A stretch of DNA of 64,000 bases. Origin: Candidatus Gastranaerophilales bacterium (GTDB taxonomy: Bacteria > Cyanobacteriota > Vampirovibrionia > Gastranaerophilales > Gastranaerophilaceae). The notes beneath the pieces were generated by a model. That model worked only from the letters and a program-made list of their open reading frames with translations, did not search any database and was not told where the DNA came from. The stretch spans positions 14,927-78,926 of the forward strand of contig CALUVW010000005.1 in NCBI GenBank assembly GCA_944324315.1, read 5' to 3'. Below, in pieces: positions 2,182-64,000 of the stretch. Each line of letters begins with the position of its first letter. The stretch's first letter is position 1. Both the position numbers and the translations under genes were made by a program.

Positions 2182-2235
2182 ATGAAAAGATTATTAAGAA
2201 CTGTAAACCTCGGGGGGGGGGCGATTCAGAGCTAA
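2182..2235 (+). CDS. Upstream mini-ORF (MKRLLRTVNLGGGAIQS*) running through a G10 tract; leader cassette copy 1
   Basis: AAGGAG lies 8 nt upstream of the ATG. The C-terminus LGGGAIQS-stop is identical in copies 1-3, and tandem TAA TAA stops follow. Confidence 0.4.
   Translation: MKRLLRTVNLGGGAIQS
2212..2221 (+). repeat. G10 homopolymer inside the mini-ORF (copy 1)
   Basis: Counted directly: 10 consecutive G, flanked by CCTC and CGATTCAGAGCTAA. Confidence 0.9.
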
Positions 2236-11396: not shown

Positions 11397-13271
11397 ATGA
11401 AAGATAAAATTTTAAGAAAATTTATTGCAGGCTTAATGTTAACGGCATTTGTTTTTACAAACAGTGTCTTAACGGTTGCGGCAATGGAAGATGCCGGAGA
11501 GCTCAATGTTTACGGGCTTGAATCCAAACCTGATTTACGTGACAATCAGGAAGAATATTCTTTAAAATTAAAGGGGGATGTAAGTTTCACAGAGAAAAAT
11601 ATCCCTATAAGCATCAGTTTAAGAGATTCTGATGTTCAGCAAGTTTTGAGAATGTTTGCGGATAAAGCGGGTTTGAATATTATATTCCATAATTCCGTTT
11701 CAGGAACTGTAACGCTTGACTTGGTTGATGTTCCATTAAATAAAGCTTTTGACATGGTTATGGAAATAAATGACCTTAACTATGTTATTGACGGAAAAAC
11801 AATTGTTGTTGCAAAATCCGGTACTTCAGGCTTCAATCTTGCAAAACAGGATATGACTTTGATTCCGGTAAAATATATCAGTGCCTCTGCTCTTGCTGAC
11901 TTTTTAAATAAAAATATTTTTGCAATGCATAAACCGGGCTTATCAAGTTCTGATATTGTTACAACAAATCCTGTGAACAATGAGTTGATTGTATTCGGGA
12001 CGAAAAATGACGTTGCTATAGCCAAGAAAATTGTTGACAAATTTGATAAAAAGCCGCAGACAACTACATTTAAAGTTAACCATACAACTCCGGCAGAAAT
12101 GGCTACTATGATTTGTAGTATGTTGTTGCCGGCTACAGGCGGCGGTGCTACTGGCGGAGCTGCCGGTATTATGACAGGTGCGGCAGCAGCTGATTATAAT
12201 CCAAGCGGAGGTTCATCAGGCGGCGGCGGAGCTGCTGGCGGTGGCGGAGGATCCGGCAGCGGTATAGCGTTGAATGAAGGAACTATTGCTTGTACTTTAG
12301 ATGGTAAAGCAAACGGTTCGATGTCATCATTCGGATTACAAAATTTATCTGTTGCATATTATTCACAGCTAGGTACTATAAGTATTATGGGTGGTTCTGA
12401 ACAGCAGATTGAAATGATAAAAGACTTTATTGCACAAACTGATAAAAAACAGCCTCAGGCATATTTAGAGGTTGCTATTATTGAATTGAATGAAGAAGGA
12501 AGTAAAACATTACAAAATAACTGGACTTTCTTAAGCCACTCTTTCTCAGCTTCATTTGACGGAGAAACAACAAGAACAGATCCTTTACATCCTATATTCT
12601 TTAAAGGCAATGGCTATGATGTATGGGATACAACAAGTGAAGAGCCTGAAATTGTTAACACTTTAAGACCATTCAGCGGTCCGATTAATATATCTTATGC
12701 AATTAATTATTTAATCAGCAACCAGAAAGGACGTATAGTATCAAATCCTAAAATTTTAATAACTAACGGACAGGAAGCTACTATAGATATAACTCAAGAC
12801 TATATTGAATCTACAGAATCCGAACAGAGCGCATACACAGGTGGTACAATTGCTACAAGAACCTATAATATTGCAAGTGATGCAGGTATTAAGGTTGGTA
12901 TTACACCATTCATAAGTCCTGACGGCTATGTTACATTGAATATTACACCGGAATATGCTACTATTTTAAGTCAGGTTCCGGCTCAGGATGAAAATGGTAC
13001 CTATACAGCAGCAACTTTGCTGTCACGTAGAAATCTTGATTTGAAAAATGTTCGAATTAAAGATGGTGAAACACTTGTTATTGCTGGTTTAATTAACGAA
13101 GAAGAACAAAAAACGGTAGGCAAAGTTCCGTTCTTAGGTGATATTCCGGGAATTGGCGCACTGTTCAGATCAACTACTTCTACTAAAAGTAAAAATGAGA
13201 TGGTTATAATGATCACTCCAAAGATTGTTACTGATACAGAGGATGCAGTTGGAAATACCGAAACATTATAG
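11397..13271 (+). CDS. pilQ: Secretin (PilQ/GspD family) with an internal Gly-rich insertion
   Basis: Signal peptide, N-domains, and a C-terminal secretin core (VSNPKILITNGQEATI...VPFLGDIPGIGALFRS). A Gly/Ala/Ser-rich low-complexity linker (GGGATGGAAG...GGGGSGSG) is present. Confidence 0.85.
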   Translation: MKDKILRKFIAGLMLTAFVFTNSVLTVAAMEDAGELNVYGLESKPDLRDNQEEYSLKLKGDVSFTEKNIPISISLRDSDVQQVLRMFADKAGLNIIFHNSVSGTVTLDLVDVPLNKAFDMVMEINDLNYVIDGKTIVVAKSGTSGFNLAKQDMTLIPVKYISASALADFLNKNIFAMHKPGLSSSDIVTTNPVNNELIVFGTKNDVAIAKKIVDKFDKKPQTTTFKVNHTTPAEMATMICSMLLPATGGGATGGAAGIMTGAAAADYNPSGGSSGGGGAAGGGGGSGSGIALNEGTIACTLDGKANGSMSSFGLQNLSVAYYSQLGTISIMGGSEQQIEMIKDFIAQTDKKQPQAYLEVAIIELNEEGSKTLQNNWTFLSHSFSASFDGETTRTDPLHPIFFKGNGYDVWDTTSEEPEIVNTLRPFSGPINISYAINYLISNQKGRIVSNPKILITNGQEATIDITQDYIESTESEQSAYTGGTIATRTYNIASDAGIKVGITPFISPDGYVTLNITPEYATILSQVPAQDENGTYTAATLLSRRNLDLKNVRIKDGETLVIAGLINEEEQKTVGKVPFLGDIPGIGALFRSTTSTKSKNEMVIMITPKIVTDTEDAVGNTETL

Positions 13272-13288
13272 AATAAAATATCAATAAG

Positions 13289-15298
13289 ATGAATGAGCTA
13301 CTTAACAGGTTAAAAAACAGTATCAATACCCAGATACTGAATAAAGTAAACAGCACACTATTGGAACAATATAAATTTGTTCCAATTAGTGTTAAAGATA
13401 ATTTCCTTTTTGTAGCAATAAATTCTACCTCTGATAAAGATGTTATAAACCTTAAACTGAAAGAGTTTTATCCCCAACAGATAAAATTTATACAGGTGCC
13501 CGATCAGGACTTGCTGGATTTAATTGAAAACATAAAATCTGATATGCAAAAATCAGGCCCTGACGATGGTACATCAAAGCAGGTCAGACTCGGAGAACTT
13601 TTAGTTCAAAAAGGTTATATCAATGATGTTCAATTGCTGCAGGCTCTGGCTGAGAGTAAAAGACAAAAAATTCCTATAGGTTCTACTCTTTTTAAACTCG
13701 GATTTATTTCGCTTGATCAACTTAAAGAAATCTTGCATCTTCAAACGGGTTATGATCTTGTAACTCCTGAACAGCTTGCGTCTCAGGCTAAATTTATAAA
13801 AATTCTTCCGGAAGATTTTATCAAAACAAATAAAATTATTCCGATATCTTCTGACGGCAAGACTCTTATTCTTGGTGTTGTTACCCCTGTTAAACCGGAT
13901 ATTCTTAAAGATATTATTTATTTGACAGGACAAAATCCAAAACAGCTTTTGATGACTCATTACGAGTTTGAAAACTCGTTAAACACATTTTTCAGTGAAC
14001 AGAAAAAGGAAACTGAAAAAGTTATCAAAGAAATCGAAAGTGAAGTTGAAGAGCTTGAAGTTGAAGAATCTTTGTCTGATATGGTTGATAAACAGCTGAA
14101 AGATTCAACCGGTTCAGTTGCAAAATTCGTAAACCAGATTATTACAAATGCGATTGACAATAAAGTATCAGATATCCACATAGAACCAAGATTGACAGGG
14201 TATATCGTAAGATACAGAAAAGACGGTATGCTGCAAAAAGTTCTTGATATTCCGCCAAAAGTTGAAACCTCGGTTATTGCACGTTTTAAGGTTTTGTCAA
14301 GAATGAACATCGCAGAACACAGACGACCTCAAGACGGTACGTTTTCCATAAAGTATAAAAACGGATCTTATGACTTCCGTATAAATACTCTTCCTGTTTC
14401 CGGTAAAGAAAAAGTCTGTATTCGTGTACTTGCTCCTGCAGTAAGTTTGAATGCCGAAGATAAAAATATTAAGTTAGTTGGCGGAACTGATGAAGATATT
14501 GCTAAAATTAAAAATATGGTAAGTTGTCCAAACGGTATTATTCTTACATCCGGTCCTACCGGTTCTGGTAAAACAACTACTTTGTATTCGGTATTAAAAA
14601 GTTTGAATGACGAAGATGTTAACATTACTACAATTGAGGACCCGATAGAAATTAAACTTGAAGGTATTAACCAGTCACAGATTAATGCAAAAGCCGGTAT
14701 TACATTCGCATCCTGTATGCGTGCTATCTTAAGACAAGACCCGGATATTATCCTTGTTGGTGAAATTCGTGACTACGAAACATTAGAGATTGCGATATCC
14801 GCGGCATTGACAGGTCACCTTGTATTAAGTACCGTTCACACAAACTCTGCAGCCGCAACAGTTACCCGTTTGATTGAAATGGGAGCAAAAGATTATCTCG
14901 TATCATCAACACTATCAGGGGTTATTGCTCAACGTCTGGTCAGAAAACTTTGTGATGATTGTAAAGAAGAATATTTCGCAAGTCATGAAGAAGCAAGGCA
15001 AATAATCGCAAATGAAGATGAAATTCAAGAATTTATGAAAAAACCGATTTATCGTGCAAAAGGTTGTAATAAATGCGGATTTACCGGTTATAAAGGCCGA
15101 CTTGGCGTATATGAAATTATGACAATTAATAAAGAAATTAAAAAGTTAATTGCAAAGGGTGCTCATGATTTGGAAATTGAAGAATCTGCAGTTAGACATG
15201 GCATGAGGACACTTAATCAATCATGTATCAGCCATATACTTAATGGCATGACAACAATTTCTGAATTTGTAAGGGTACTCGGTGTTGTTAACGAATAG
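13289..15298 (+). CDS. pilB: GspE/PilB-family type IV pilus / T2SS assembly ATPase
   Basis: Walker A GPTGSGKTT, Asp and His boxes, and a tetracysteine motif CDDC...CNKC. It also has T2SSE_N-like N-terminal domains. Confidence 0.9.
   Translation: MNELLNRLKNSINTQILNKVNSTLLEQYKFVPISVKDNFLFVAINSTSDKDVINLKLKEFYPQQIKFIQVPDQDLLDLIENIKSDMQKSGPDDGTSKQVRLGELLVQKGYINDVQLLQALAESKRQKIPIGSTLFKLGFISLDQLKEILHLQTGYDLVTPEQLASQAKFIKILPEDFIKTNKIIPISSDGKTLILGVVTPVKPDILKDIIYLTGQNPKQLLMTHYEFENSLNTFFSEQKKETEKVIKEIESEVEELEVEESLSDMVDKQLKDSTGSVAKFVNQIITNAIDNKVSDIHIEPRLTGYIVRYRKDGMLQKVLDIPPKVETSVIARFKVLSRMNIAEHRRPQDGTFSIKYKNGSYDFRINTLPVSGKEKVCIRVLAPAVSLNAEDKNIKLVGGTDEDIAKIKNMVSCPNGIILTSGPTGSGKTTTLYSVLKSLNDEDVNITTIEDPIEIKLEGINQSQINAKAGITFASCMRAILRQDPDIILVGEIRDYETLEIAISAALTGHLVLSTVHTNSAAATVTRLIEMGAKDYLVSSTLSGVIAQRLVRKLCDDCKEEYFASHEEARQIIANEDEIQEFMKKPIYRAKGCNKCGFTGYKGRLGVYEIMTINKEIKKLIAKGAHDLEIEESAVRHGMRTLNQSCISHILNGMTTISEFVRVLGVVNE
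13586..13744 (+). other. MshEN-like tandem motif (candidate c-di-GMP-binding region) within the pilus ATPase
   Basis: The two motifs are RLGELLVQKGYINDVQLLQALAES and IGSTLFKLGFISLDQLKEILHLQ. Both follow the RLGxxLLxxGLIxxxxLxxxLxxQ pattern described for MshE-type N-domains. Confidence 0.5.
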
Positions 15299-15306
15299 GA
15301 GAAATA

Positions 15307-16530
15307 ATGGCAATATATAATTACATAGCTTTAAAAAATAATAAAGATATCGTAAAAGGTAAAGTTGATGCCGAAGACTTGAGAGAAGCAAGAGAAAGTA
15401 TTCGAAAACTCGGCTTTATTCCGACAAAAGTTTATGAGGAAAAAGGCAAAGAAGACAATAAAGCCGCTAAGGGAGATGTAAAAGGCGGGAAAATTCAAAA
15501 ACTCGGGCTTCAAGATCGTATTGATTTCACCTCAACTTTGCAAATATTGGCTCAGGCAGGTATTCCTATTATTGAATCTTTGATGTTTATTGAAAACGAT
15601 GCGGCAAAGCTCAGAGTAAGACTTGTTGCAAAAGAATTAAGACGTCAGATTATGGCAGGTGCTACATTTGCTGATACGGTTGCAAGATATCCCGAACAGT
15701 TTGGACAGGTATATATCGGTCTTGTAAAAGCCGGTGAAGATTCCGGTGAACTTGAAAAAACTTTGCAACGTCTTTTGGAATTGCAGACAAAAGAGGCAAA
15801 TATCAGAGGTAAAGTTATCGGAACATTGATGTATCCGATGTTCGTTATTGTTTTGGCAGTAATTATTGTACTTGTTATGTTAATGTTCGTATTCCCTGTA
15901 TTCAAAGAAATGTTTGACGGTATGGGAAAAGAACTGCCATGGATTACGGCGACATTGATGAGTGCCGGTGTGTTCTTAAAAACATACTGGTTTTTTGCTC
16001 CGATTATATTAGGTTCTATGGTTGGTTTTTGTACATTCATCATGAGATGGCAGCCTTCAAAAAGAAAAGTTGACGAATATGTATTAAAAATTCCTCTTTT
16101 ATCTGATTTGATGCAATTTTCAAACTTTGCAAACTTTGTTGCGGTTATGCAGGTTGCGTACGACGCAGGTGTTCCGATTATTGAGTGTTTATACCTTGCG
16201 AATTTGACTCTTACAAACTATACACTTAAAACAAAAATAGAAGCAGCAACTCTAAAAGTTCAACAGGGGCAGCATTTATCTGTTGCATTAAGATCAACTG
16301 GGGTTATGCCAAAGATGATTTTGTTTATGATTGCAACCGGTGAACAATCTGGTCGTTTGGGTGATATGCTTTTGCAGGCAACATCTTATATTGATAAAAA
16401 ACTTGATACAATTATTGATACAATGACAAAAATGATTGAGCCGATAATGCTTATCGTAATTGGTAGTATTGTATTGACATTGGCTCTTGCACTTTACTTA
16501 CCGCTGTTCAATTCTTATATGACAGATTAG
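15307..16530 (+). CDS. pilC: GspF/PilC-family platform protein
   Basis: 407 aa. It has two repeated T2SSF domains and three TM segments, and follows the ATPase by 8 nt. Confidence 0.9.
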   Translation: MAIYNYIALKNNKDIVKGKVDAEDLREARESIRKLGFIPTKVYEEKGKEDNKAAKGDVKGGKIQKLGLQDRIDFTSTLQILAQAGIPIIESLMFIENDAAKLRVRLVAKELRRQIMAGATFADTVARYPEQFGQVYIGLVKAGEDSGELEKTLQRLLELQTKEANIRGKVIGTLMYPMFVIVLAVIIVLVMLMFVFPVFKEMFDGMGKELPWITATLMSAGVFLKTYWFFAPIILGSMVGFCTFIMRWQPSKRKVDEYVLKIPLLSDLMQFSNFANFVAVMQVAYDAGVPIIECLYLANLTLTNYTLKTKIEAATLKVQQGQHLSVALRSTGVMPKMILFMIATGEQSGRLGDMLLQATSYIDKKLDTIIDTMTKMIEPIMLIVIGSIVLTLALALYLPLFNSYMTD

Positions 16531-16547
16531 TGAAAAGGAATTTATTT

Positions 16548-17366
16548 ATGAAAAAAACGTATGTAATTACGGGGACAACTTCCGGTATAGGGAAAAACCT
16601 GCTTGAAGTCTTTGCAAAAAATAACATTGTTTTTGCAGGCTATAGAAATGAAAAATATCTTGAGGATTTAAAGGCGGTCTCGGATAATGTAATCCCTTTT
16701 TTCATAGACATGGAAAATAAATCATCAATTGCACAGGCTGCAGCATTTATTAAATCTAAAACAGATAAAATTGATACCTTGATAAATGTTGCAGGATGTG
16801 TTGTTGCAGGATTAATGGACAGAATTGATGTTGATGATATAAGAAAGCAGTTTGAAGTTAATACTTTTTCGCATCTTGATTTGACACAAAGATTATTACC
16901 TTTATTAAAAGGCGGAAAAATCATAAATATAAGTTCTATGGCAAGTTTTGGGATATTTCCTTTTGTTGCCCCATATTGTGCCTCAAAACGGGCTATGGAT
17001 ATTTTGTTTAATTCTCTTGCTGTAGAATCAAACATAAAAGTAGTTTCGGTTAAACCTGGAGTCATTGCAACTCCTCTGTGGGGAAAATCCGTTGAACTTA
17101 ATAAAAAATCAATTGAAAATTGTAAAGAATATGAAAAACAGATGCAATATATGATTTCGAATGCTAAAAAGAACGAAACCAATGGTCTTGATGTTCATAA
17201 AGTCACTGACCTGATAATAAAAATTGACGGAGATGACAATCCTAAAGCATCTTACACAGTAGGTAAAGATGCATTTTTTGCTAAATTAGCATCAAAACTT
17301 CCTCAAGATTGGATTAACAAGATGATAAGGTACGGAATAAAATCTAAGATTTCTTCCGTAAAATAA
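16548..17366 (+). CDS. SDR-family oxidoreductase
   Basis: ITGTTSGIG loop and a YCASK catalytic motif. The ATG at 16548 is preferred over the GTG at 16530. Confidence 0.75.
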   Translation: MKKTYVITGTTSGIGKNLLEVFAKNNIVFAGYRNEKYLEDLKAVSDNVIPFFIDMENKSSIAQAAAFIKSKTDKIDTLINVAGCVVAGLMDRIDVDDIRKQFEVNTFSHLDLTQRLLPLLKGGKIINISSMASFGIFPFVAPYCASKRAMDILFNSLAVESNIKVVSVKPGVIATPLWGKSVELNKKSIENCKEYEKQMQYMISNAKKNETNGLDVHKVTDLIIKIDGDDNPKASYTVGKDAFFAKLASKLPQDWINKMIRYGIKSKISSVK

Positions 17367-17580
17367 TTTCGTAATTTAAAATATCCGCTATTTCTGCAAG
17401 TTCAGAGACTCGAAATGTTTTGTTGCGCAGTTTGTTACTAAGGTTGTTATTACTATCACTTTTACCGTATTTTTCGTTAACAAGTTCTTTTACTCTTTTT
17501 ACGGTAAGACCGTCAATGGCTGCGAGATATTTGATTTGTAGGGCTAATTTATCTGTTTCAAGTATTATTTCTCTGTCCAT
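17344..17580 (-). CDS. Small putative DNA-binding (HTH-like) protein, divergent from a pilin-like gene
   Basis: 78 aa. The pattern LTVKRVKELVNEKYG...LSNKLRNKTFRVSELAEIADIL resembles short XRE/phage-repressor-type HTH proteins. This is a weak call. Confidence 0.35.
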   Translation of the reverse strand: MDREIILETDKLALQIKYLAAIDGLTVKRVKELVNEKYGKSDSNNNLSNKLRNKTFRVSELAEIADILNYEIILRKKS

Positions 17581-17622
17581 TAAAGAATAATACTATTTAT
17601 TAATTAATAAAGACAATAGATA

Positions 17623-17651
17623 TTGACATTATTAATTATATAGTTAATAAT
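17623..17651 (+). promoter_or_regulatory. Sigma70-like promoter for the pilin-like gene 17691 (TTGACA-16/17-TAATAAT)
   Basis: TTGACA at 17623-17628 and an AT-rich -10 near 17645-17651. It is embedded in TTAATTAAT palindromic words. Confidence 0.4.
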
Positions 17652-17690
17652 ATATATTAAATAATTAATTAATATGACAGGAGGATTTTT

Positions 17691-18326
17691 ATGAAAAAAG
17701 GGTTTACGTTAGCTGAAGTTCTGATAACACTCGGTATTATAGGCGTAGTAGCTTCAATAACCATGACGTCGTTGATTGCAGAGCATCAAAAGTTGGTGAC
17801 AGTTACAAAATTGAAAAAAGCTTATAACGTCTTAAATAATGCTATTAGATTGGCAGAAGTTGAACATGGAGATAAGTCTCAATGGGGTGATTCTAATAAC
17901 GATGAATGTGGACTTTATATTTATAATCATTATGTTAGAGGTAAATTAAAAGTTCTTAAAGATGTAGAAGATACTGGCTCTAATTGTCAATCTGATCCTG
18001 AAATTGTATTAGCTGATGGTATTGTTCTGGATTCTTTTATTAATTGGAGTCCCTTAAGTCGGGACGCTTTCACTGTTGATATAAATGGGGCAGCGGGGCC
18101 TAATAAAGTGGGTAGAGATAGATTTGACTTTTTCTATTCAAGTAAATATGGATATGCGCCTGCTGGTTTTTGTGATCATCCGGAATGGTCACCTTCCGAT
18201 TGTGTCGCAACAGATGGTAGTAGGAATGATGTGAAAAATGCCGGATGTAATGAGCGAAATAAGTTTTTATGTGGTGCATTAATTATGATGGATGGGTGGC
18301 AAATAAAAGACGATTATCCATGGTAG
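17691..18326 (+). CDS. Prepilin-type N-terminal cleavage/methylation domain protein with a classical short leader
   Basis: MKKG|FTLAEVLITLGIIGVVASITM, and a C-terminal VDINGAAGPNKVGRDRFDFF motif shared with the other paralogues. AGGAGG SD. Confidence 0.85.
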   Translation: MKKGFTLAEVLITLGIIGVVASITMTSLIAEHQKLVTVTKLKKAYNVLNNAIRLAEVEHGDKSQWGDSNNDECGLYIYNHYVRGKLKVLKDVEDTGSNCQSDPEIVLADGIVLDSFINWSPLSRDAFTVDINGAAGPNKVGRDRFDFFYSSKYGYAPAGFCDHPEWSPSDCVATDGSRNDVKNAGCNERNKFLCGALIMMDGWQIKDDYPW

Positions 18327-28256: not shown

Positions 28257-28310
28257 ATGAAGAGATTAACTATGCCTGAAATCCTCGGGGGGGGGGCAAT
28301 TCAGAGCTAA
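28257..28310 (+). CDS. Upstream mini-ORF (MKRLTMPEILGGGAIQS*) through a G10 tract; leader cassette copy 2
   Basis: Same C-terminus and stop context as copies 1 and 3. The SD (AAGAG) is weak. Confidence 0.35.
   Translation: MKRLTMPEILGGGAIQS
28287..28296 (+). repeat. G10 homopolymer (copy 2)
   Basis: Counted directly. Confidence 0.9.
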
Positions 28311-28380: not shown

Positions 28381-28492
28381 AGCATTTAGATGCAAAGATG
28401 CTAAGAGGCATAGATGCAAAGCAGCATTTATTCTTGCCGAAGGTGCTACGCACGTAGCCCACTCTCAGAATATTCGTCGAGCAGCTTTTACT

Positions 28493-29272
28493 TTGGCAGA
28501 AGTTCTCATAACCCTCGGCATAATTGGAGTAGTTGCCGCTATGACAATGCCGAGTTTGATTACTAATTACCAGAAAAAGGTCTGGACTGATCAGCTAAAA
28601 AAAACTTATTCTACCTTGAATGAAGCATACCGTCAGACTTTAGCACACGCAGGCTGTACAGATGCAATAAGCTGCGGGTTTATGGATGTTGGGAGCTCTA
28701 TACTTCCAGAATTTAGCACTGATTTTTATATTAAATTATTAAATAACTTGAAGCATGAAAATTTATTATTAGTTCCAAATATGAATAATATGACTTCAGA
28801 AGAATTGAATGATTTTAGTGCAAATGTAAATCAGGAACTTGGAAATTATTATACAACTTTAACCTTTAAATTAATGAAAAATAATCGTCAAGTAGATCTT
28901 TATGATTTGATTCCATCTTACTATGTTGAAAAAGGTGGATTTTTTGCGAATACAACTGACGGAGCAATGATAGCATTCTTTAATCCTGGTATCTTGATAG
29001 ATGTCAACGGAAGTAAGGGGCCAAATGTTGTAGGCAGAGATGTTTTTATGTTTTCTGCAACTGATAATGCTATAGTACCAGAATCTTCTATTGCTTATAG
29101 GAATTTTCTTTCGAGAATTTATCCTAAAGCAGCTGATGAATCCGGCCTTTCAGATACACTGCTTGACTATAATGAATTGAAAAGTAAATGTTTATCTTCT
29201 ACCAGCGCTTCTACTTCAGCTGTATGCTGTGCAGATATAATTGTGTTTGATGGCTGGGAGATGAAGTATTAA
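28493..29272 (+). CDS. Prepilin-type N-terminal domain protein without a conventional in-frame start; frame open upstream to 28280
   Basis: IRRAA|FTLAEVLITLGIIGVVAAMTMP is encoded from 28472. The only track start (TTG 28493) lies inside the mature FTLAEV motif. No ATG, GTG or TTG occurs in frame between 28280 and 28492. C-terminal motif IDVNGSKGPNVVGRDVFMF. Confidence 0.7.
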   Translation: MAEVLITLGIIGVVAAMTMPSLITNYQKKVWTDQLKKTYSTLNEAYRQTLAHAGCTDAISCGFMDVGSSILPEFSTDFYIKLLNNLKHENLLLVPNMNNMTSEELNDFSANVNQELGNYYTTLTFKLMKNNRQVDLYDLIPSYYVEKGGFFANTTDGAMIAFFNPGILIDVNGSKGPNVVGRDVFMFSATDNAIVPESSIAYRNFLSRIYPKAADESGLSDTLLDYNELKSKCLSSTSASTSAVCCADIIVFDGWEMKY

Positions 29273-41655: not shown

Positions 41656-41712
41656 ATGAAAGATATGTTAAAAAATATTAAGTACCTCGGGGGGGGGGCG
41701 ATTCAGAGCTAA
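41656..41712 (+). CDS. Upstream mini-ORF (MKDMLKNIKYLGGGAIQS*) through a G10 tract; leader cassette copy 3
   Basis: AAGGAG lies 7 nt upstream. It has the same LGGGAIQS-stop end as copies 1 and 2. Confidence 0.4.
   Translation: MKDMLKNIKYLGGGAIQS
41689..41698 (+). repeat. G10 homopolymer (copy 3)
   Basis: Counted directly. Confidence 0.9.
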
Positions 41713-41762: not shown

Positions 41763-41789
41763 GTCATCCCGAACTTGTTTCGGGATCTC
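41763..41789 (+). repeat. Dispersed hairpin repeat copy with compensatory changes (GTCATCCCGAACTTGTTTCGGGATCTC)
   Basis: The stem is CCCGAA/TTCGGG, versus CCTGAA/TTCAGG in copy 1. Confidence 0.7.
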
Positions 41790-41876
41790 ATAATTAGATG
41801 AAAAGATGCTAAGAGGCATAGATGCAAAGTCTGTAACGAAAACCCCTTCCTTCCCTTATTAGGGAAGGATAAGAGG

Positions 41877-42704
41877 ATGGGTATTAATCAATACCCACCC
41901 CTGCCCTCCCTAATAAGGGAGGGTGTTAAGCCCGTAGATACCTCGAATAACATTCGTCGAGCAGCTTTTACTTTGGCAGAAGTTCTCATCACCCTTGGAA
42001 TAATTGGTGTTGTTGCCGCTATGACAATGCCTGTACTTATAAATAATTATCAAAAACACGCTTTGAAAAATCAATTCAAAGTAGCATATTCATTGTTAAA
42101 TCAGGCATTACTATCGGCCATAGAGAAAAACGGCGGTGCATTTAACTGCTGGTATTGGAAAACTATTCCGTATCCTGGTGCAGTATGCAAAAAGTGGGAT
42201 GGCAGTGCCTGTGCTGAGTACTCTATGCCTGACGGTTCTCCATTACCTGCAGATTATAACGGAAAATTTGACGAATGTGCAAATATGTATAATGCATTAC
42301 ATTCTGAATTGAAAGTCGTTTCTGAATGTAAAAATAATTCGACCAATCATTGTGTTCCTGAATATAAAGGAAAAGATGTTGTAAATGCTGATCCTGACAA
42401 AACTATGACGGAAATATTAGGTGCGTGTCCGAATTTAGCAACAAGTAATTTGAATAGGTTTTCTTACAAAATTTTATCTAATGGTATAATAACCGGGTAC
42501 GAGCGGTCAGGCTGGGTCTTTATTGTAGACGTAAACGGAAGTAGAGGCCCGAATAAATGGGGTTATGATGTTTTTCTTTTTGCCCCACAACTTCATGGTT
42601 CCAATAGTTCAGGAATGATTATTTTTGGCGGTATGAAAGGGAATGGTTGTAATTTAAAAGAACCGGGAGGCTATTATACACATGAAATGCTAGAAAATTA
42701 TTAA
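41877..42704 (+). CDS. Prepilin-type N-terminal domain protein with a long leader
   Basis: MGINQYPPLPSLIREGVKPVDTSNNIRRAA|FTLAEVLITLGIIGVVAAMTMP. The first 160 nt or so are near-identical to 2391-2560. C-terminal motif VDVNGSRGPNKWGYDVFLF. Confidence 0.8.
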   Translation: MGINQYPPLPSLIREGVKPVDTSNNIRRAAFTLAEVLITLGIIGVVAAMTMPVLINNYQKHALKNQFKVAYSLLNQALLSAIEKNGGAFNCWYWKTIPYPGAVCKKWDGSACAEYSMPDGSPLPADYNGKFDECANMYNALHSELKVVSECKNNSTNHCVPEYKGKDVVNADPDKTMTEILGACPNLATSNLNRFSYKILSNGIITGYERSGWVFIVDVNGSRGPNKWGYDVFLFAPQLHGSNSSGMIIFGGMKGNGCNLKEPGGYYTHEMLENY

Positions 42705-59197: not shown

Positions 59198-60040
59198 CTA
59201 TTTACATTTAGTTTTTGTTCCCCATTGTAAATCATCGCAGTGAAGATAATCCATATTTTCATTTTGTATGACCCATGCGGTACAATTACTGGCTAAAGCC
59301 CTGTTGAAACTACAAGTTTGTGAAAAATCTGGATGTTCTTGTTGTGTTCCGGTTGGCAGTATTCTGTCTTTTTTCATTTCAAACACAAAAAAGTCTTTGC
59401 CAAATTGGTTTGGTCCCCTGTAATATCCGTTTGTATCTACAAATATTTCTGCACAGTTGGTGGCATTGCTATATAGACCAATATAGTCTGTTGAGCATTT
59501 TTTAAATCCGGGGCTGACATGGAATATAATTAAAGTACCATCTTCTAAAACTAGATGTTTGTAGGAACCTTGAAAATTGTAAGCTATATGCGGAGTTCCA
59601 TTTAAATATAAATATTTTTTTGAACCAATGCAGGTATTTATTTTTTTGCAGTCATCAGCTATTTTAAAATATGGTTTAAAATACTGATTAAGTAGTACTT
59701 GTGAACCTTCTTTTGAATCCTCATCTTTTAAATCCCATTGATCAACTGTCATTCCAGTGTCATTAATCGCACTTACAAGTGCCTGGCTTAAAATAGAATA
59801 TACTTTTTTCAATTTGGCAACGGTTTCTTTTTCTCTATGATCTTGAATAAGAGATGGTATTGTCATTGATGCAACAACACCGATGATACCGAGGGTGATA
59901 AGAACTTCAGACAAAGTGAATGCAAATTTTTTTAGTCGATAAGACGTTAAGACGTTAGGACGATAAATGCGTTTCGGGGAATTACTCTTCCCCTCCCTTA
60001 TCAGGGAGGGGGGTAGGGGTGGGTATTGATCAAAACCCAT
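59198..60040 (-). CDS. Prepilin-type N-terminal domain protein with a long leader (cassette copy 4)
   Basis: MGFDQYPPLPPSLIREGKSNSPKRIYRPNVLTSYRLKKFA|FTLSEVLITLGIIGVVASMTIP. C-terminal motif VDTNGYYRGPNQFGKDFFVFEM. Confidence 0.8.
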   Translation of the reverse strand: MGFDQYPPLPPSLIREGKSNSPKRIYRPNVLTSYRLKKFAFTLSEVLITLGIIGVVASMTIPSLIQDHREKETVAKLKKVYSILSQALVSAINDTGMTVDQWDLKDEDSKEGSQVLLNQYFKPYFKIADDCKKINTCIGSKKYLYLNGTPHIAYNFQGSYKHLVLEDGTLIIFHVSPGFKKCSTDYIGLYSNATNCAEIFVDTNGYYRGPNQFGKDFFVFEMKKDRILPTGTQQEHPDFSQTCSFNRALASNCTAWVIQNENMDYLHCDDLQWGTKTKCK

Positions 60041-60177
60041 CCTAACCTTCCCTAATAAGGGAAGGAATTTATTTTTACGCGGGCACTGCCCGCCAATAAC
60101 AGCCTGCCCTCCTGCCTTCTTGACCTCCGGAAATCTGTTTATATTAAACTCACCTGAAAATACAGTATCTGTCAGTC
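60041..60177 (-). promoter_or_regulatory. Leader of pilin copy 4: SD-sequestering hairpin plus a GC hairpin
   Basis: CCTTCCC-TTATTA-GGGAAGG (60046-60065 on the + strand), then TTAGG-ATG. It also has a GCGGGC-AGT-GCCCGC hairpin and the word CCGGAGGTCAAGAAG shared with copies 1-3. Confidence 0.55.
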
Positions 60178-60216
60178 TTACGGGGGGGGGGCAATTCTAA
60201 GCTTTCTATTTAACAT
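60178..60216 (-). CDS. Upstream mini-ORF (MLNRKLRIAPPP*) running through a C10 tract; leader cassette copy 4
   Basis: A strong SD AGGAGG lies 5 nt upstream. It starts 9 nt after the stop of 60226..60870. Confidence 0.4.
   Translation of the reverse strand: MLNRKLRIAPPP
60182..60191. repeat. G10 (top strand) / C10 (gene strand) homopolymer, inverted module
   Basis: The top strand reads CGGGGGGGGGGCAATTCTAAGCT, matching the top-strand CGGGGGGGGGGCAATTCAGAGCT of copy 2. The associated pilin gene is on the opposite strand. Confidence 0.9.
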
Positions 60217-60225
60217 TTTGACCTC

Positions 60226-60870
60226 CTATATATTAAAACTTTTTCTTGAGCCTTCTTCATGGTAGAAACCTCCGCCGCAGATGGTTTCTACTACCTTTAA
60301 CACGAATTCTCTTGGAGCATCAACCTGATTGAGGTAAAATTCGCGGTTTGGAAGATGTCTGATTTTCATTATTGAATTCTGTGTTGATTCCGGCGGTATA
60401 AATAAGGATGCAACTTCATTATCAAGAAGTTTGACCATTTCTTCATCATGGTCAGTTACACCTTTCATTAATTCATAATAATTACCTCTGATTGCCATAA
60501 TTCTGCTTGAGAAGAGGTGATGACCATCCTCTCTGTATAAGGCTTGAGGCTGATAATTACATCTGGTGGTAAAGCTCATTTTGTGCCATAGAATATTAAC
60601 GATGACTATTGATTTTTGAGGATCTGTATCAACGTATATATTCTGTGTTGTAACGTTTCTTGATGAGAAAGCCTCTTTTAATGAATCAACAACTATTTGC
60701 AGGTTATCAATCATTCTTGAAAATATTTCATTGGTATTGATATTTGCGTGTTGATAATCCAGAAATTGTTTATACATGTGAGTTGAGACTAAACCGACTC
60801 TTTCCTGAATTAATGCGGATTTTCTTGCAGATGTTTCGGAATTATCAAAGCTTTCAAAATTATTTAACAA
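60226..60870 (-). CDS. Hypothetical protein (214 aa), probably co-transcribed with leader cassette 4 and its pilin gene
   Basis: Track ORF with no recognised motif. Confidence 0.5.
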   Translation of the reverse strand: MLNNFESFDNSETSARKSALIQERVGLVSTHMYKQFLDYQHANINTNEIFSRMIDNLQIVVDSLKEAFSSRNVTTQNIYVDTDPQKSIVIVNILWHKMSFTTRCNYQPQALYREDGHHLFSSRIMAIRGNYYELMKGVTDHDEEMVKLLDNEVASLFIPPESTQNSIMKIRHLPNREFYLNQVDAPREFVLKVVETICGGGFYHEEGSRKSFNI

Positions 60871-63563: not shown

Positions 63564-64000
63564 TTGAAATTTCTTAACAAACAGTTATATTCCGGTTTTA
63601 CTCTTGCAGAGGTGCTGATAACTCTCGGTATTATAGGTGTAGTCGCTGCGATGACACTCCCTACTTTAAATCAGAAACTTTCTGACCAAAAAAATATGTC
63701 ATCTTTAAAAAAAGCATATTCCATTCTTCAACAGGCAACTCTTCTTGTAATATCAGAACATGAAGCGCCTGAATACTGGACTATTGAGGATAATGATCAA
63801 GAACTTGTAAATACTATTTATAATTATTATAAACCTCATTTCAATATGATGAGAGAATGCCAGAACAGTTCCGGATGCTGGGGATATCCGACAAAATATC
63901 TAAATGGTAATGTTTATTGGTCAGCACATAATACTTCATGGTATCAATATGCTTTTACACTCACAGATGGGATTAATGTTTTATTAGATATTTATGATAC
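63564..64000 (+). CDS. Prepilin-type N-terminal domain protein (5' partial in window; TTG start)
   Basis: LKFLNKQLYSG|FTLAEVLITLGIIGVVAAMTLP is a classical G|F cleavage site with no long leader cassette. The ORF runs off the window end. Confidence 0.7.
   Translation, partial: MKFLNKQLYSGFTLAEVLITLGIIGVVAAMTLPTLNQKLSDQKNMSSLKKAYSILQQATLLVISEHEAPEYWTIEDNDQELVNTIYNYYKPHFNMMRECQNSSGCWGYPTKYLNGNVYWSAHNTSWYQYAFTLTDGINVLLDIYD

Follow-up and report, generated by a model that had tools for sequence, protein, structure and literature searches.

The homopolymer module of pilin genes in Candidatus Gastranaerophilales keeps to one DNA strand whichever way the gene points

The fourth of four pilin-like genes in a 64,000-nucleotide stretch of DNA from a Candidatus Gastranaerophilales bacterium (assembly GCA_944324315.1, contig CALUVW010000005.1; this whole stretch is called the window) is headed by a short module built on a run of ten G:C pairs, which relative to its gene points the opposite way to the modules of the other three. 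This raises the question of whether the module was inverted, as an invertible switch would be, and what it does for the pilin gene behind it. The Gastranaerophilales are widespread gut relatives of cyanobacteria and, as far as we know, uncultured.

On the top strand the module of locus 4 reads CGGGGGGGGGGCAATTCTAAGCT. A search of the window with this 23-mer, allowing at most three mismatches, matches four places, all on the plus strand, at 2211 (3 mismatches), 28286 (2), 41688 (3) and 60181 (0), with a chance expectation of 0.00 from 100 shuffles; the likeness of 60181–60203 to the copy at locus 2 (28286–28308), which an earlier note on this DNA had pointed out, is borne out. These are also the only places in the window with G-runs of eight or more (0.15 expected). 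Downstream of every module there is a pilin-like gene (N-terminus FTL(A/S)EVLITLGIIGVVA); three of these genes are on the plus strand and the fourth is on the minus strand, so that the module of locus 4 is indeed flipped relative to its gene. The coding strand across it is AGCTTAGAATTG-C10-G, and its mini open-reading frame (mini-ORF) passes through C10, as the same note had it, while those of loci 1–3 pass through G10 and end in ..LGGGAIQS*.

The module at locus 4 is, however, not inverted relative to the chromosome; it is the direction of the gene that differs. The tract keeps the same strand whichever way the gene runs, and the module therefore looks inverted at locus 4: pilin genes on the G-strand have G10 as coding sequence (loci 1–3), and those on the other strand have C10 (locus 4). 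This retention of G on the G/T-rich strand by genes of differing direction is the main pattern, and it was missed in the earlier note.

The pattern extends to related genomes. A search for the module pattern in a species-representative genome collection yields 56 loci (numbered here as L008 and the like), about 52 of which come from some 20 Candidatus Gastranaerophilales/Melainabacteria metagenome-assembled genomes (MAGs) of human, mouse and chicken gut, with one MAG carrying at least 14 tracts. The sample amounts to 469 kb, and its tract lengths and orientations are those of consensus assemblies; tracts found independently of the pattern are by-catch within the fetched loci, and a census of 75 G/C runs of at least 8 nucleotides (nt) is independent of the flank. 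In the 16 loci that hold several tracts, all tracts lie on one DNA strand (20/20 additional tracts), and in about 10 of the 16 the pilins run in both directions or both types of head are present, the head switching between C and G accordingly. Two pairs of contigs sampled at separate places agree in strand as well, and none of 73 tracts (10- and 11-mers) is discordant within a locus.

The strand that carries the G-run is marked by its composition. When loci are oriented with the G-run up, and of the non-pilin ORFs only those at a distance of over 1.5 kb from the nearest tract are used, the coding-strand GC skew at third codon positions comes to +0.140 where the gene lies on the G-run strand and to -0.138 where it lies on the opposite one (p=7.5e-20). 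By AT skew, the strand with the G-run is rich in T as well, 47 of 52 loci agreeing (p=1.3e-9), and the regression of GC skew on coding-strand bias leaves an intercept of +0.045±0.003 (t=13). No reversal of the skew is seen within the window. An excess of G over C together with T over A is the usual signature of the leading strand, which points to the G/T-rich strand being the leading one. Composition alone is rejected as the cause of the polarity, since short runs are nearly unpolarised (G4 377:365; G5 55:34). The sole G8 run, an ordinary in-frame coding sequence in a MurJ-like gene (L034:4028), lies on the strand opposite to the C10 tract of its locus, and the strand rule is thus limited to 10- and 11-mers and does not hold for G-runs generally. 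The strict polarity indicates that switching of the homopolymer depends strongly on leading versus lagging synthesis; a 4–8 fold strand asymmetry, stronger on the leading strand, has been described for slippage-type events at G-runs (bioRxiv 10.1101/2022.10.28.514265).

Locus 4 is not the inverted exception it was taken for. Its layout, in which the pilin is on the strand opposite to the G-run and C10 is coding (C-type), is the common one, found at about 46 loci, while heads with G10 coding (G-type) are rarer and number 12 (L009, L011, L012, L014, L015, L017, L018, L021, L056 and the three window loci); loci 1–3 therefore represent a recurrent minority class, not the norm. In the C-type a Shine-Dalgarno (SD) sequence, an ATG, a few codons, AGCTYWGAATYG, C10, the leader and the pilin follow in this order; in the shortest case the tract lies 6 nt before the cleavage site, and L008 with C11 would read MKKLRIAPPPEG|FTLAEV. 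The frame is open through to the pilin in 11 of the 12 G-type heads, the exception being locus 3 of the window, and a search set to n=11 exposed two further heads of this type (L012@1848 and L023@7447). The heads are modular, as in one MAG a G-type locus (L021) and C-type loci (L049/L020) share the 3′ leader and pilin N-terminus and differ in their heads, and the G-type heads of different genomes (L009, L015, L021 and the window) are homologous to one another. Among individual cases, L012:1848 places a 504-amino-acid pilin-like protein (G|YTLAEI) under G-type control; L046:4938 has a G10 module in an apparently non-pilin ORF of 502 residues, in frame at n=10 and with a GTG start; L042:2199 is in frame at n=9; and the tract of L031:6164 is near the 3′ end of its ORF.

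The tract length sets the reading frame by a simple rule. In 50 tract–pilin pairs with n=10 and an open frame, the upstream ATG is exactly 1 nt short of the pilin frame, needing +1; all five n=11 tracts are in frame, the sole n=9 tract needs +2, and the rule is common to C-type and G-type heads, with L040 (L040:2886), which needs +2 at n=10, as the exception. The claim that every copy in the window keeps an SD, a stop right after the tract and a one-nucleotide offset to an open pilin frame stands as to the offset, since all four mini-ORFs need +1 nt; as to the open frame it holds for loci 1, 2 and 4 only, one TGA being present at locus 3. With C11, the mini-ORF of locus 4 would run on into the pilin frame. 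The leaders of the four window loci, compared by frame-aware scripts, lack the usual pilin start, with ATT (loci 1–3) or CTA (locus 4) in place of the M of M-R-R-A-A|FTLAEV. Between the tract and FTLAE no stop interrupts the frame over as much as 731 nt, in DNA whose GC content is about 35%. An in-frame ATG beyond the tract is lacking in about 27 of the tract pilins; at locus 2 there is none between tract and pilin.

The lengths themselves are sharply distributed. Runs of G or C in the 469 kb number 89 at length 5, 7 at 6, none at 7, one each at 8 and 9, 68 at 10 and 5 at 11. About 88% of the tracts are of length 10 and out of frame, while in-frame alleles of 11 and 8 exist at orthologous loci. 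The ortholog of locus 2 has G9 in L062 and G10 in the near-identical L060, and four orthologous pairs (L019/L010, L013/L018, L030/L042 and L036/L033) differ as 10 versus 11. The protein database holds in-frame alleles of the 11-type and 8-type (P0001, P0013, P0018 and P0038); a protein search with the in-frame (ON-state) N-terminus returned mostly short fragments, which confirm that ON alleles exist and give no ON:OFF ratio. As in loci known to vary in phase through simple sequence repeats, the tract is far longer than composition predicts, the frame is toggled by its length, the length differs between related strains, and the product belongs to a surface structure, as judged by prepilin-type N-termini (FTLAEVLITLG) and the families PF07963/PF20318. 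The length spectrum parallels that of the polyG contingency loci of Campylobacter jejuni, with 303 G5, 18 G6, no G7, four G8 and a mode at 9–10, the mode being explained there by an insertion bias at G8–9 which turns into a deletion bias at G10–11 (PMC3401435).

Replication-slippage phase variation of a pilin repertoire, with the polarity of the tracts tied to replication, is in our view the probable explanation; slippage was among the functions suggested in the earlier note, and is the one judged likely. The explanation builds on the anatomy, the frame rule, the length spectrum, the length polymorphism at the DNA level, the strand rule and the skew association, all of which are shown. The G10:C10 tract, which would be hypermutable, stands just behind the start codon, in the part of variable type IV pilin genes that encodes the leader peptide. 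When the tract has its modal length of 10, translation that begins at the upstream SD-ATG would stop within the short mini-ORF (OFF), and a +1 slip to 11, or the loss of two to give 8, would connect that start to the prepilin by way of the long open leader (ON). Judged by the 5 of 73 tracts that have length 11, each locus may be ON in a small minority of cells, and a genome with many such genes would express few pilin variants per cell. Switching is predicted to be reversible and frequent, and the long leaders are predicted to be translated and cleaved. The G-run occupies the G/T-rich, putative leading strand whatever the gene direction; this polarity may have been selected because slippage-type +G events at G-runs are several-fold commoner on the leading strand (bioRxiv 10.1101/2022.10.28.514265). 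Another possibility is that deamination erodes C-runs more quickly when they lie on the more exposed strand. Poly-C and poly-G messages obey the identical rule, which argues for an event at the level of DNA.

Several observations weigh against slippage as the explanation. Nearly all loci are OFF at consensus and length 9 is almost absent, a distribution which is narrower than that of the phase-variable systems known so far and which a fixed recoding signal would explain just as well. The length differences are those between consensus sequences, and heterogeneity within a population is a prediction. The leading strand is assigned from the skew only. Slippage alone does not explain the conserved 12-nt flank. 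The leader of locus 3 is interrupted by an in-frame TGA at 41799–41801 (C to A relative to loci 1 and 2), and the internal SD-like GGAAGG and ATG that loci 1, 3 and 4 carry within a palindromic unit could allow expression independent of the tract. Finally, the prepilin cleavage motif and hydrophobic helix are canonical, and the leaders are atypical, ranging from 12 residues (L008-type) to about 240–250; prepilins whose leader peptides reach about 240 residues have, to our knowledge, no precedent. As a separate observation, even an 11-mer gives no read-through from the upstream start at locus 3, and this gene may depend on an internal ATG at 41877 or be decaying.

The flank deserves separate treatment. 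In the related DNA it adjoins the G-run 58 times and occurs elsewhere 0 times, so that its similarity is neither chance nor confined to the window, and the possibility that the copies share just a homopolymer with chance flanks, raised in the earlier note itself, is dismissed. C-type heads read the flank in two frames (..ELRIAPPP.. and ..EALNCPPP..) and G-type heads read it on the other strand; one class has it on the 5′ side of the tract, the other on the 3′ side. Conservation of the flank as a leader-peptide sequence is accordingly rejected, and the conserved unit is a DNA-level module whose peptides are irrelevant, as the note had proposed. The flank is retained where the neighbouring head sequence diverges. 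It may be functional, for example by modulating slippage or as the binding site of a factor, or it may have been handed down through a small number of inversions in place.

Inheritance is the stronger of the competing ideas, and may be regarded as possible though somewhat doubtful. On this account a few ancient short inversions, for example by template switching, made G-type heads from C-type heads, the flank is functionless and the polarity is a by-product of tract survival. Few events would be needed, given that the G-type heads are one homologous family, and because flipping a 23–28-bp module in place does not alter its length, the frame arithmetic is preserved of itself. A recent short inversion would also give the 28 bp (ttttgc-G10-CAATTCTGAGCT) that L017 has in common with C-type modules, and part of the flank has a trivial role in G-type heads, where AGCT+RR provides the OFF-frame stop (AGC-TRR). 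A functionless flank would not, however, be expected to be kept amid diverging head sequence, to be read in two frames within C-type heads or never to be found without a tract. G-type flanks that were not selected by the pattern (CACTCTCAGCT, CATTCTCAGCT, CATACTTTAGGCT and others) also resemble the C-type consensus in the G-strand orientation, with a combined p of about 2e-8, inflated by the shared ancestry of the heads, and 0.88 on the control side. This account is compatible with phase variation as the explanation of the tract itself.

In the opposite sense, it is hypothesized, tentatively and with less conviction than inheritance, that G10 and the 12-nt flank form a dedicated, replication-polar, cis-acting mutational switch, functional only with the G-run as leading strand or when read there by a flank-binding factor, and that this 23–28-bp cassette has been repeatedly flipped in place as pilin genes changed strand. 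If so, a uniform rule of ‘10 = OFF, 11 = ON’ would hold across 10–20 pilin genes per genome, and this would be the first contingency-locus system oriented by the replication fork and not by the gene.

Recoding at the RNA level appears unlikely, although some features speak for it. The 10-mer would then be a fixed, selected slippery site, at which RNA polymerase inserts an extra nucleotide (transcriptional slippage) or the ribosome moves into the -1 frame on C_CCC_CCC or G_GGG_GGG, to yield a constant full-length fraction. The length of 10 is strikingly invariant (68/75 tracts) and always exactly one nucleotide short, the shift needed is in the common -1 direction, and slippage calls for an RNA:DNA hybrid of roughly ten nucleotides. 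However, the 45 nt after the tract have a mean folding z-score of -0.03 over 60 loci, with 1/60 below -2, and a stimulator of -1 frameshifting is rejected, as no common downstream structure exists over these loci. Loci with short leaders pass straight into G|FTLAEV, and there is no common structure or spacing. Poly-C and poly-G messages follow one rule in spite of different tRNAs and hybrids, the flank is on different sides of the tract in the two classes, and recoding does not predict the replication-type strand polarity that is observed, nor does it fit the existence of in-frame 11 and 8 alleles and a 9 allele.

It is very improbable that the lengths are an artefact, the true tract being 11, in frame, and under-called to 10 by Illumina sequencing or assembly. 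Homopolymers of at least 10 are error-prone and some MAGs have low coverage, but the same 10 recurs in separate studies of human, mouse and chicken gut and with different assemblers, which the contig names give as SPAdes and MEGAHIT, lengths 11, 9 and 8 are also recovered, and Illumina assemblies of C. jejuni recover variable lengths (PMC3401435). Several MAG contigs break or start exactly at a G10 tract (L011 at position 7, L029 at 26, L037 at 11 and L017 at 23), which could be taken for an artefact and would fit either length heterogeneity or poor read quality there.

Site-specific inversion, proposed in the earlier note from the occurrence of the same 23-bp module in both orientations relative to pilin genes, finds no support. 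No inverted repeats of at least 6 nt bracket 60181–60203 at locus 4 or 28286–28308 at locus 2. No Pfam domain of a recombinase, integrase or transposase is present in the 40 window ORFs of at least 100 residues, 9 of which had no Pfam hit, though a recombinase could be encoded elsewhere in the genome. In consensus sequences the orientation of locus 4 is unchanged in three further assemblies (100% identical, C10) and in orthologs from two other species (L007 and L032), and that of locus 2 in five other strains (about 6% diverged; orthologs L060–L064). Since, in addition, both orientations are OFF at n=10 and a flip would switch nothing, the modules on a contig are direct and not inverted repeats, and the 23–39-bp segment is far shorter than any invertible element known to us, a recombinase-driven switch is largely refuted and scarcely credible. 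A quadruplex, also among the suggested functions, requires for its intramolecular form four G-tracts, which a single G10 run does not have.

The coordinates of the features of the window are collected in the table. The region of locus 4 is nearly identical to L032 (BRZ_BB__bin33). Its cleavage motif is ..RLKKFA|FTLSEVLITLG, which starts at 59920, and its leader contains three leader-specific palindromic units (59991–60065), one of which bears the annotated ATG at 60040. Since the stop codon of the 214-residue gene upstream overlaps the SD of the mini-ORF, one transcript may cover that gene and locus 4. A perfect 9-bp hairpin at 60262–60291 (GTAGAAACC...GGTTTCTAC) lies within the 3′ end of the upstream gene. 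Loci 1–3 each have promoter-like sequences of their own. A lookup for the genes neighbouring loci 1 and 3 returned no encoding contigs on record.

Table. Positions of the pilin loci and of pilus-related features within the window
Feature	Position	Strand	Remarks
Locus 4, 23-bp module	60181..60203		C + G10 (60182-60191) + 12-nt flank CAATTCTAAGCT (60192-60203); no strand assigned, written on top strand
Locus 4, mini-ORF MLNRKLRIAPPP*	60178..60216	minus	Reading of the prepilin leader at C10 (putative OFF state); stop directly after tract
Locus 4, SD GGAGGTC of mini-ORF	60220..60226	minus	Overlaps stop codon of upstream gene (60226-60228)
Locus 4, upstream gene, 214 aa	60226..60870	minus	
Locus 4, open pilin-frame leader, tract to prepilin cleavage motif	59921..60196	minus	Contains CCGGAGGTCAAGAAGG
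Locus 4, pilin ORF as annotated, 280 aa	59198..60040	minus	Pfam PF20318 DUF6613, prepilin-type N-terminus
Locus 1, G-type head, mini-ORF MKRLLRTVNLGGGAIQS*	2182..2235	plus	Module 2211-2233, G10 at 2212-2221
Locus 1, pilin N-terminus FTLAEV	2484	plus	ORF end 3158
Locus 2, G-type head, mini-ORF MKRLTMPEILGGGAIQS*	28257..28310	plus	Module 28286-28308, G10 at 28287-28296
Locus 2, pilin FTLAEV	28487	plus	End 29272
Locus 3, G-type head, mini-ORF MKDMLKNIKYLGGGAIQS*	41656..41712	plus	Module 41688-41710, G10 at 41689-41698
Locus 3, pilin FTLAEV	41967	plus	End 42704
Type IV pilus machinery operon	11397-18326		Secretin, T2SSE ATPase, T2SSF platform, then canonical tract-less pilin at 17691, MKKG|FTLAEV
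Tract-less pilin, TTG start	63564-64000		SD AAGAGG; from 63564, runs off window

The pilin leaders are mosaics of small perfect palindromes (CCTTCCC-TTATTA-GGGAAGG, GGGTATT-AATC-AATACCC, CCCTCCC-TAATCA-GGGAGGG and GGTGCTACG-CA-CGTAGCC), present in the window at 2366–2440, 41849–41923 and 59991–60065, also at 28442–28459 and 41763–41787, and in the leaders of L020, L049, L052 and L058. They are always in frame, over up to 731 nt, and one unit bears an SD-like GGAAGG and an ATG which ORF callers take for the pilin start. Genome-wide dispersed repeats are rejected for this sample, in which the units are found only inside pilin leaders. No Rfam family matched anywhere in the window at the gathering threshold, and the conserved leaders are rejected as a known riboswitch or RNA. 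In many leaders the true pilin N-terminus is preceded by a second, degenerate copy of itself (..KAAFTLAEGATHV....IRRAAFTLAEVLITLG), as at 28415–28500 of the window and in L052, L058, L025, L005, L013 and L018; this suggests that recombination or capture has recurred at the conserved stretch encoding the N-terminus. Many pilin ORFs of the database (P0003, P0005, P0023, P0034, P0038, P0066 and P0081) end a few codons past a conserved K-L-K-K motif encoded by a poly-A run. This run may be another place in these genes that is prone to frameshifts, or the same sequencing error may recur there.

These results suggest that Gastranaerophilales carry a large, stochastically expressed pilin repertoire under a uniform homopolymer switch, presumably for immune or phage evasion or for a choice of adhesion. 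The strict strand polarity, with 47 of 52 loci on the G/T-rich strand, is a natural experiment for mutation biology, and the compact 23-bp element is directly testable in both orientations. In annotations such pilin genes are systematically mis-called, the start being truncated or set at an ATG within a palindromic unit. That pilus-related genes can vary in phase through homopolymers is already well known. The literature yielded no description of such a system in Melainabacteria and no report of replication-locked polarity of contingency tracts; nor did we find a description of an order-wide 10/11 rule, of the flank module, of in-frame palindromic leaders or, above all, of a gene-independent, replication-type strand lock.

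Among known systems, fimS, hin, piv and the R64 shufflon likewise have the same short sequence in both orientations next to pilus genes, but the present module has no inverted repeats, recombinase or orientation polymorphism, and its flip leaves the state unchanged. Programmed slippage and -1 frameshifting, as in dnaX and insertion sequence (IS) elements, also involve a gene that is one nucleotide out of frame at a homopolymer; unlike these, the pilin tracts have no stimulatory structure, follow their rule as poly-C and as poly-G, vary at the DNA level and show replication-type polarity. In Neisseria, pilC has poly-G in its signal-peptide coding region, and pgtA and others also vary in phase through poly-G. 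The likeness to pilC is close, poly-G being in the leader-coding part of a pilus-associated gene which is turned ON or OFF by frameshift, although one or two genes are involved there and not a repertoire. We know of no shared flank module or strand rule described for the Neisseria poly-G genes, and the pilin itself is varied in Neisseria by gene conversion, not by a homopolymer.

The G-quadruplex (G4)/small RNA element of pilE in N. gonorrhoeae (Cahoon & Seifert 2013, PMC3547852) is similarly a G-rich cis element by a pilin gene, whose function depends on orientation and direction, and its authors discuss placement on the lagging or leading strand (PMC3547852). It is, however, a four-tract G-quadruplex that triggers recombination, while here a single G10 within an ORF acts, in the favoured reading, through frameshift, and no silent cassettes are seen. 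The polyG loci of C. jejuni (Bayliss et al. 2012, PMC3401435) share with the pilin loci the placement of G/C tracts in the 5′ part of reading frames, a low-GC genome, multiple loci, surface-structure genes, the near absence of G7–G8, a sharp mode at 9–10 and the toggling of the frame by one nucleotide. The pilin loci differ in having their mode at 10, a sharper spectrum, a uniform 10 OFF/11 ON rule, a paralogous pilin repertoire and a 12-nt flank that travels with the tract. Moreover, 80% of the C. jejuni tracts are reported simply as polyG on the coding strand (PMC3401435), whereas in the Gastranaerophilales pilin loci the strand is fixed to the skew of the chromosome.

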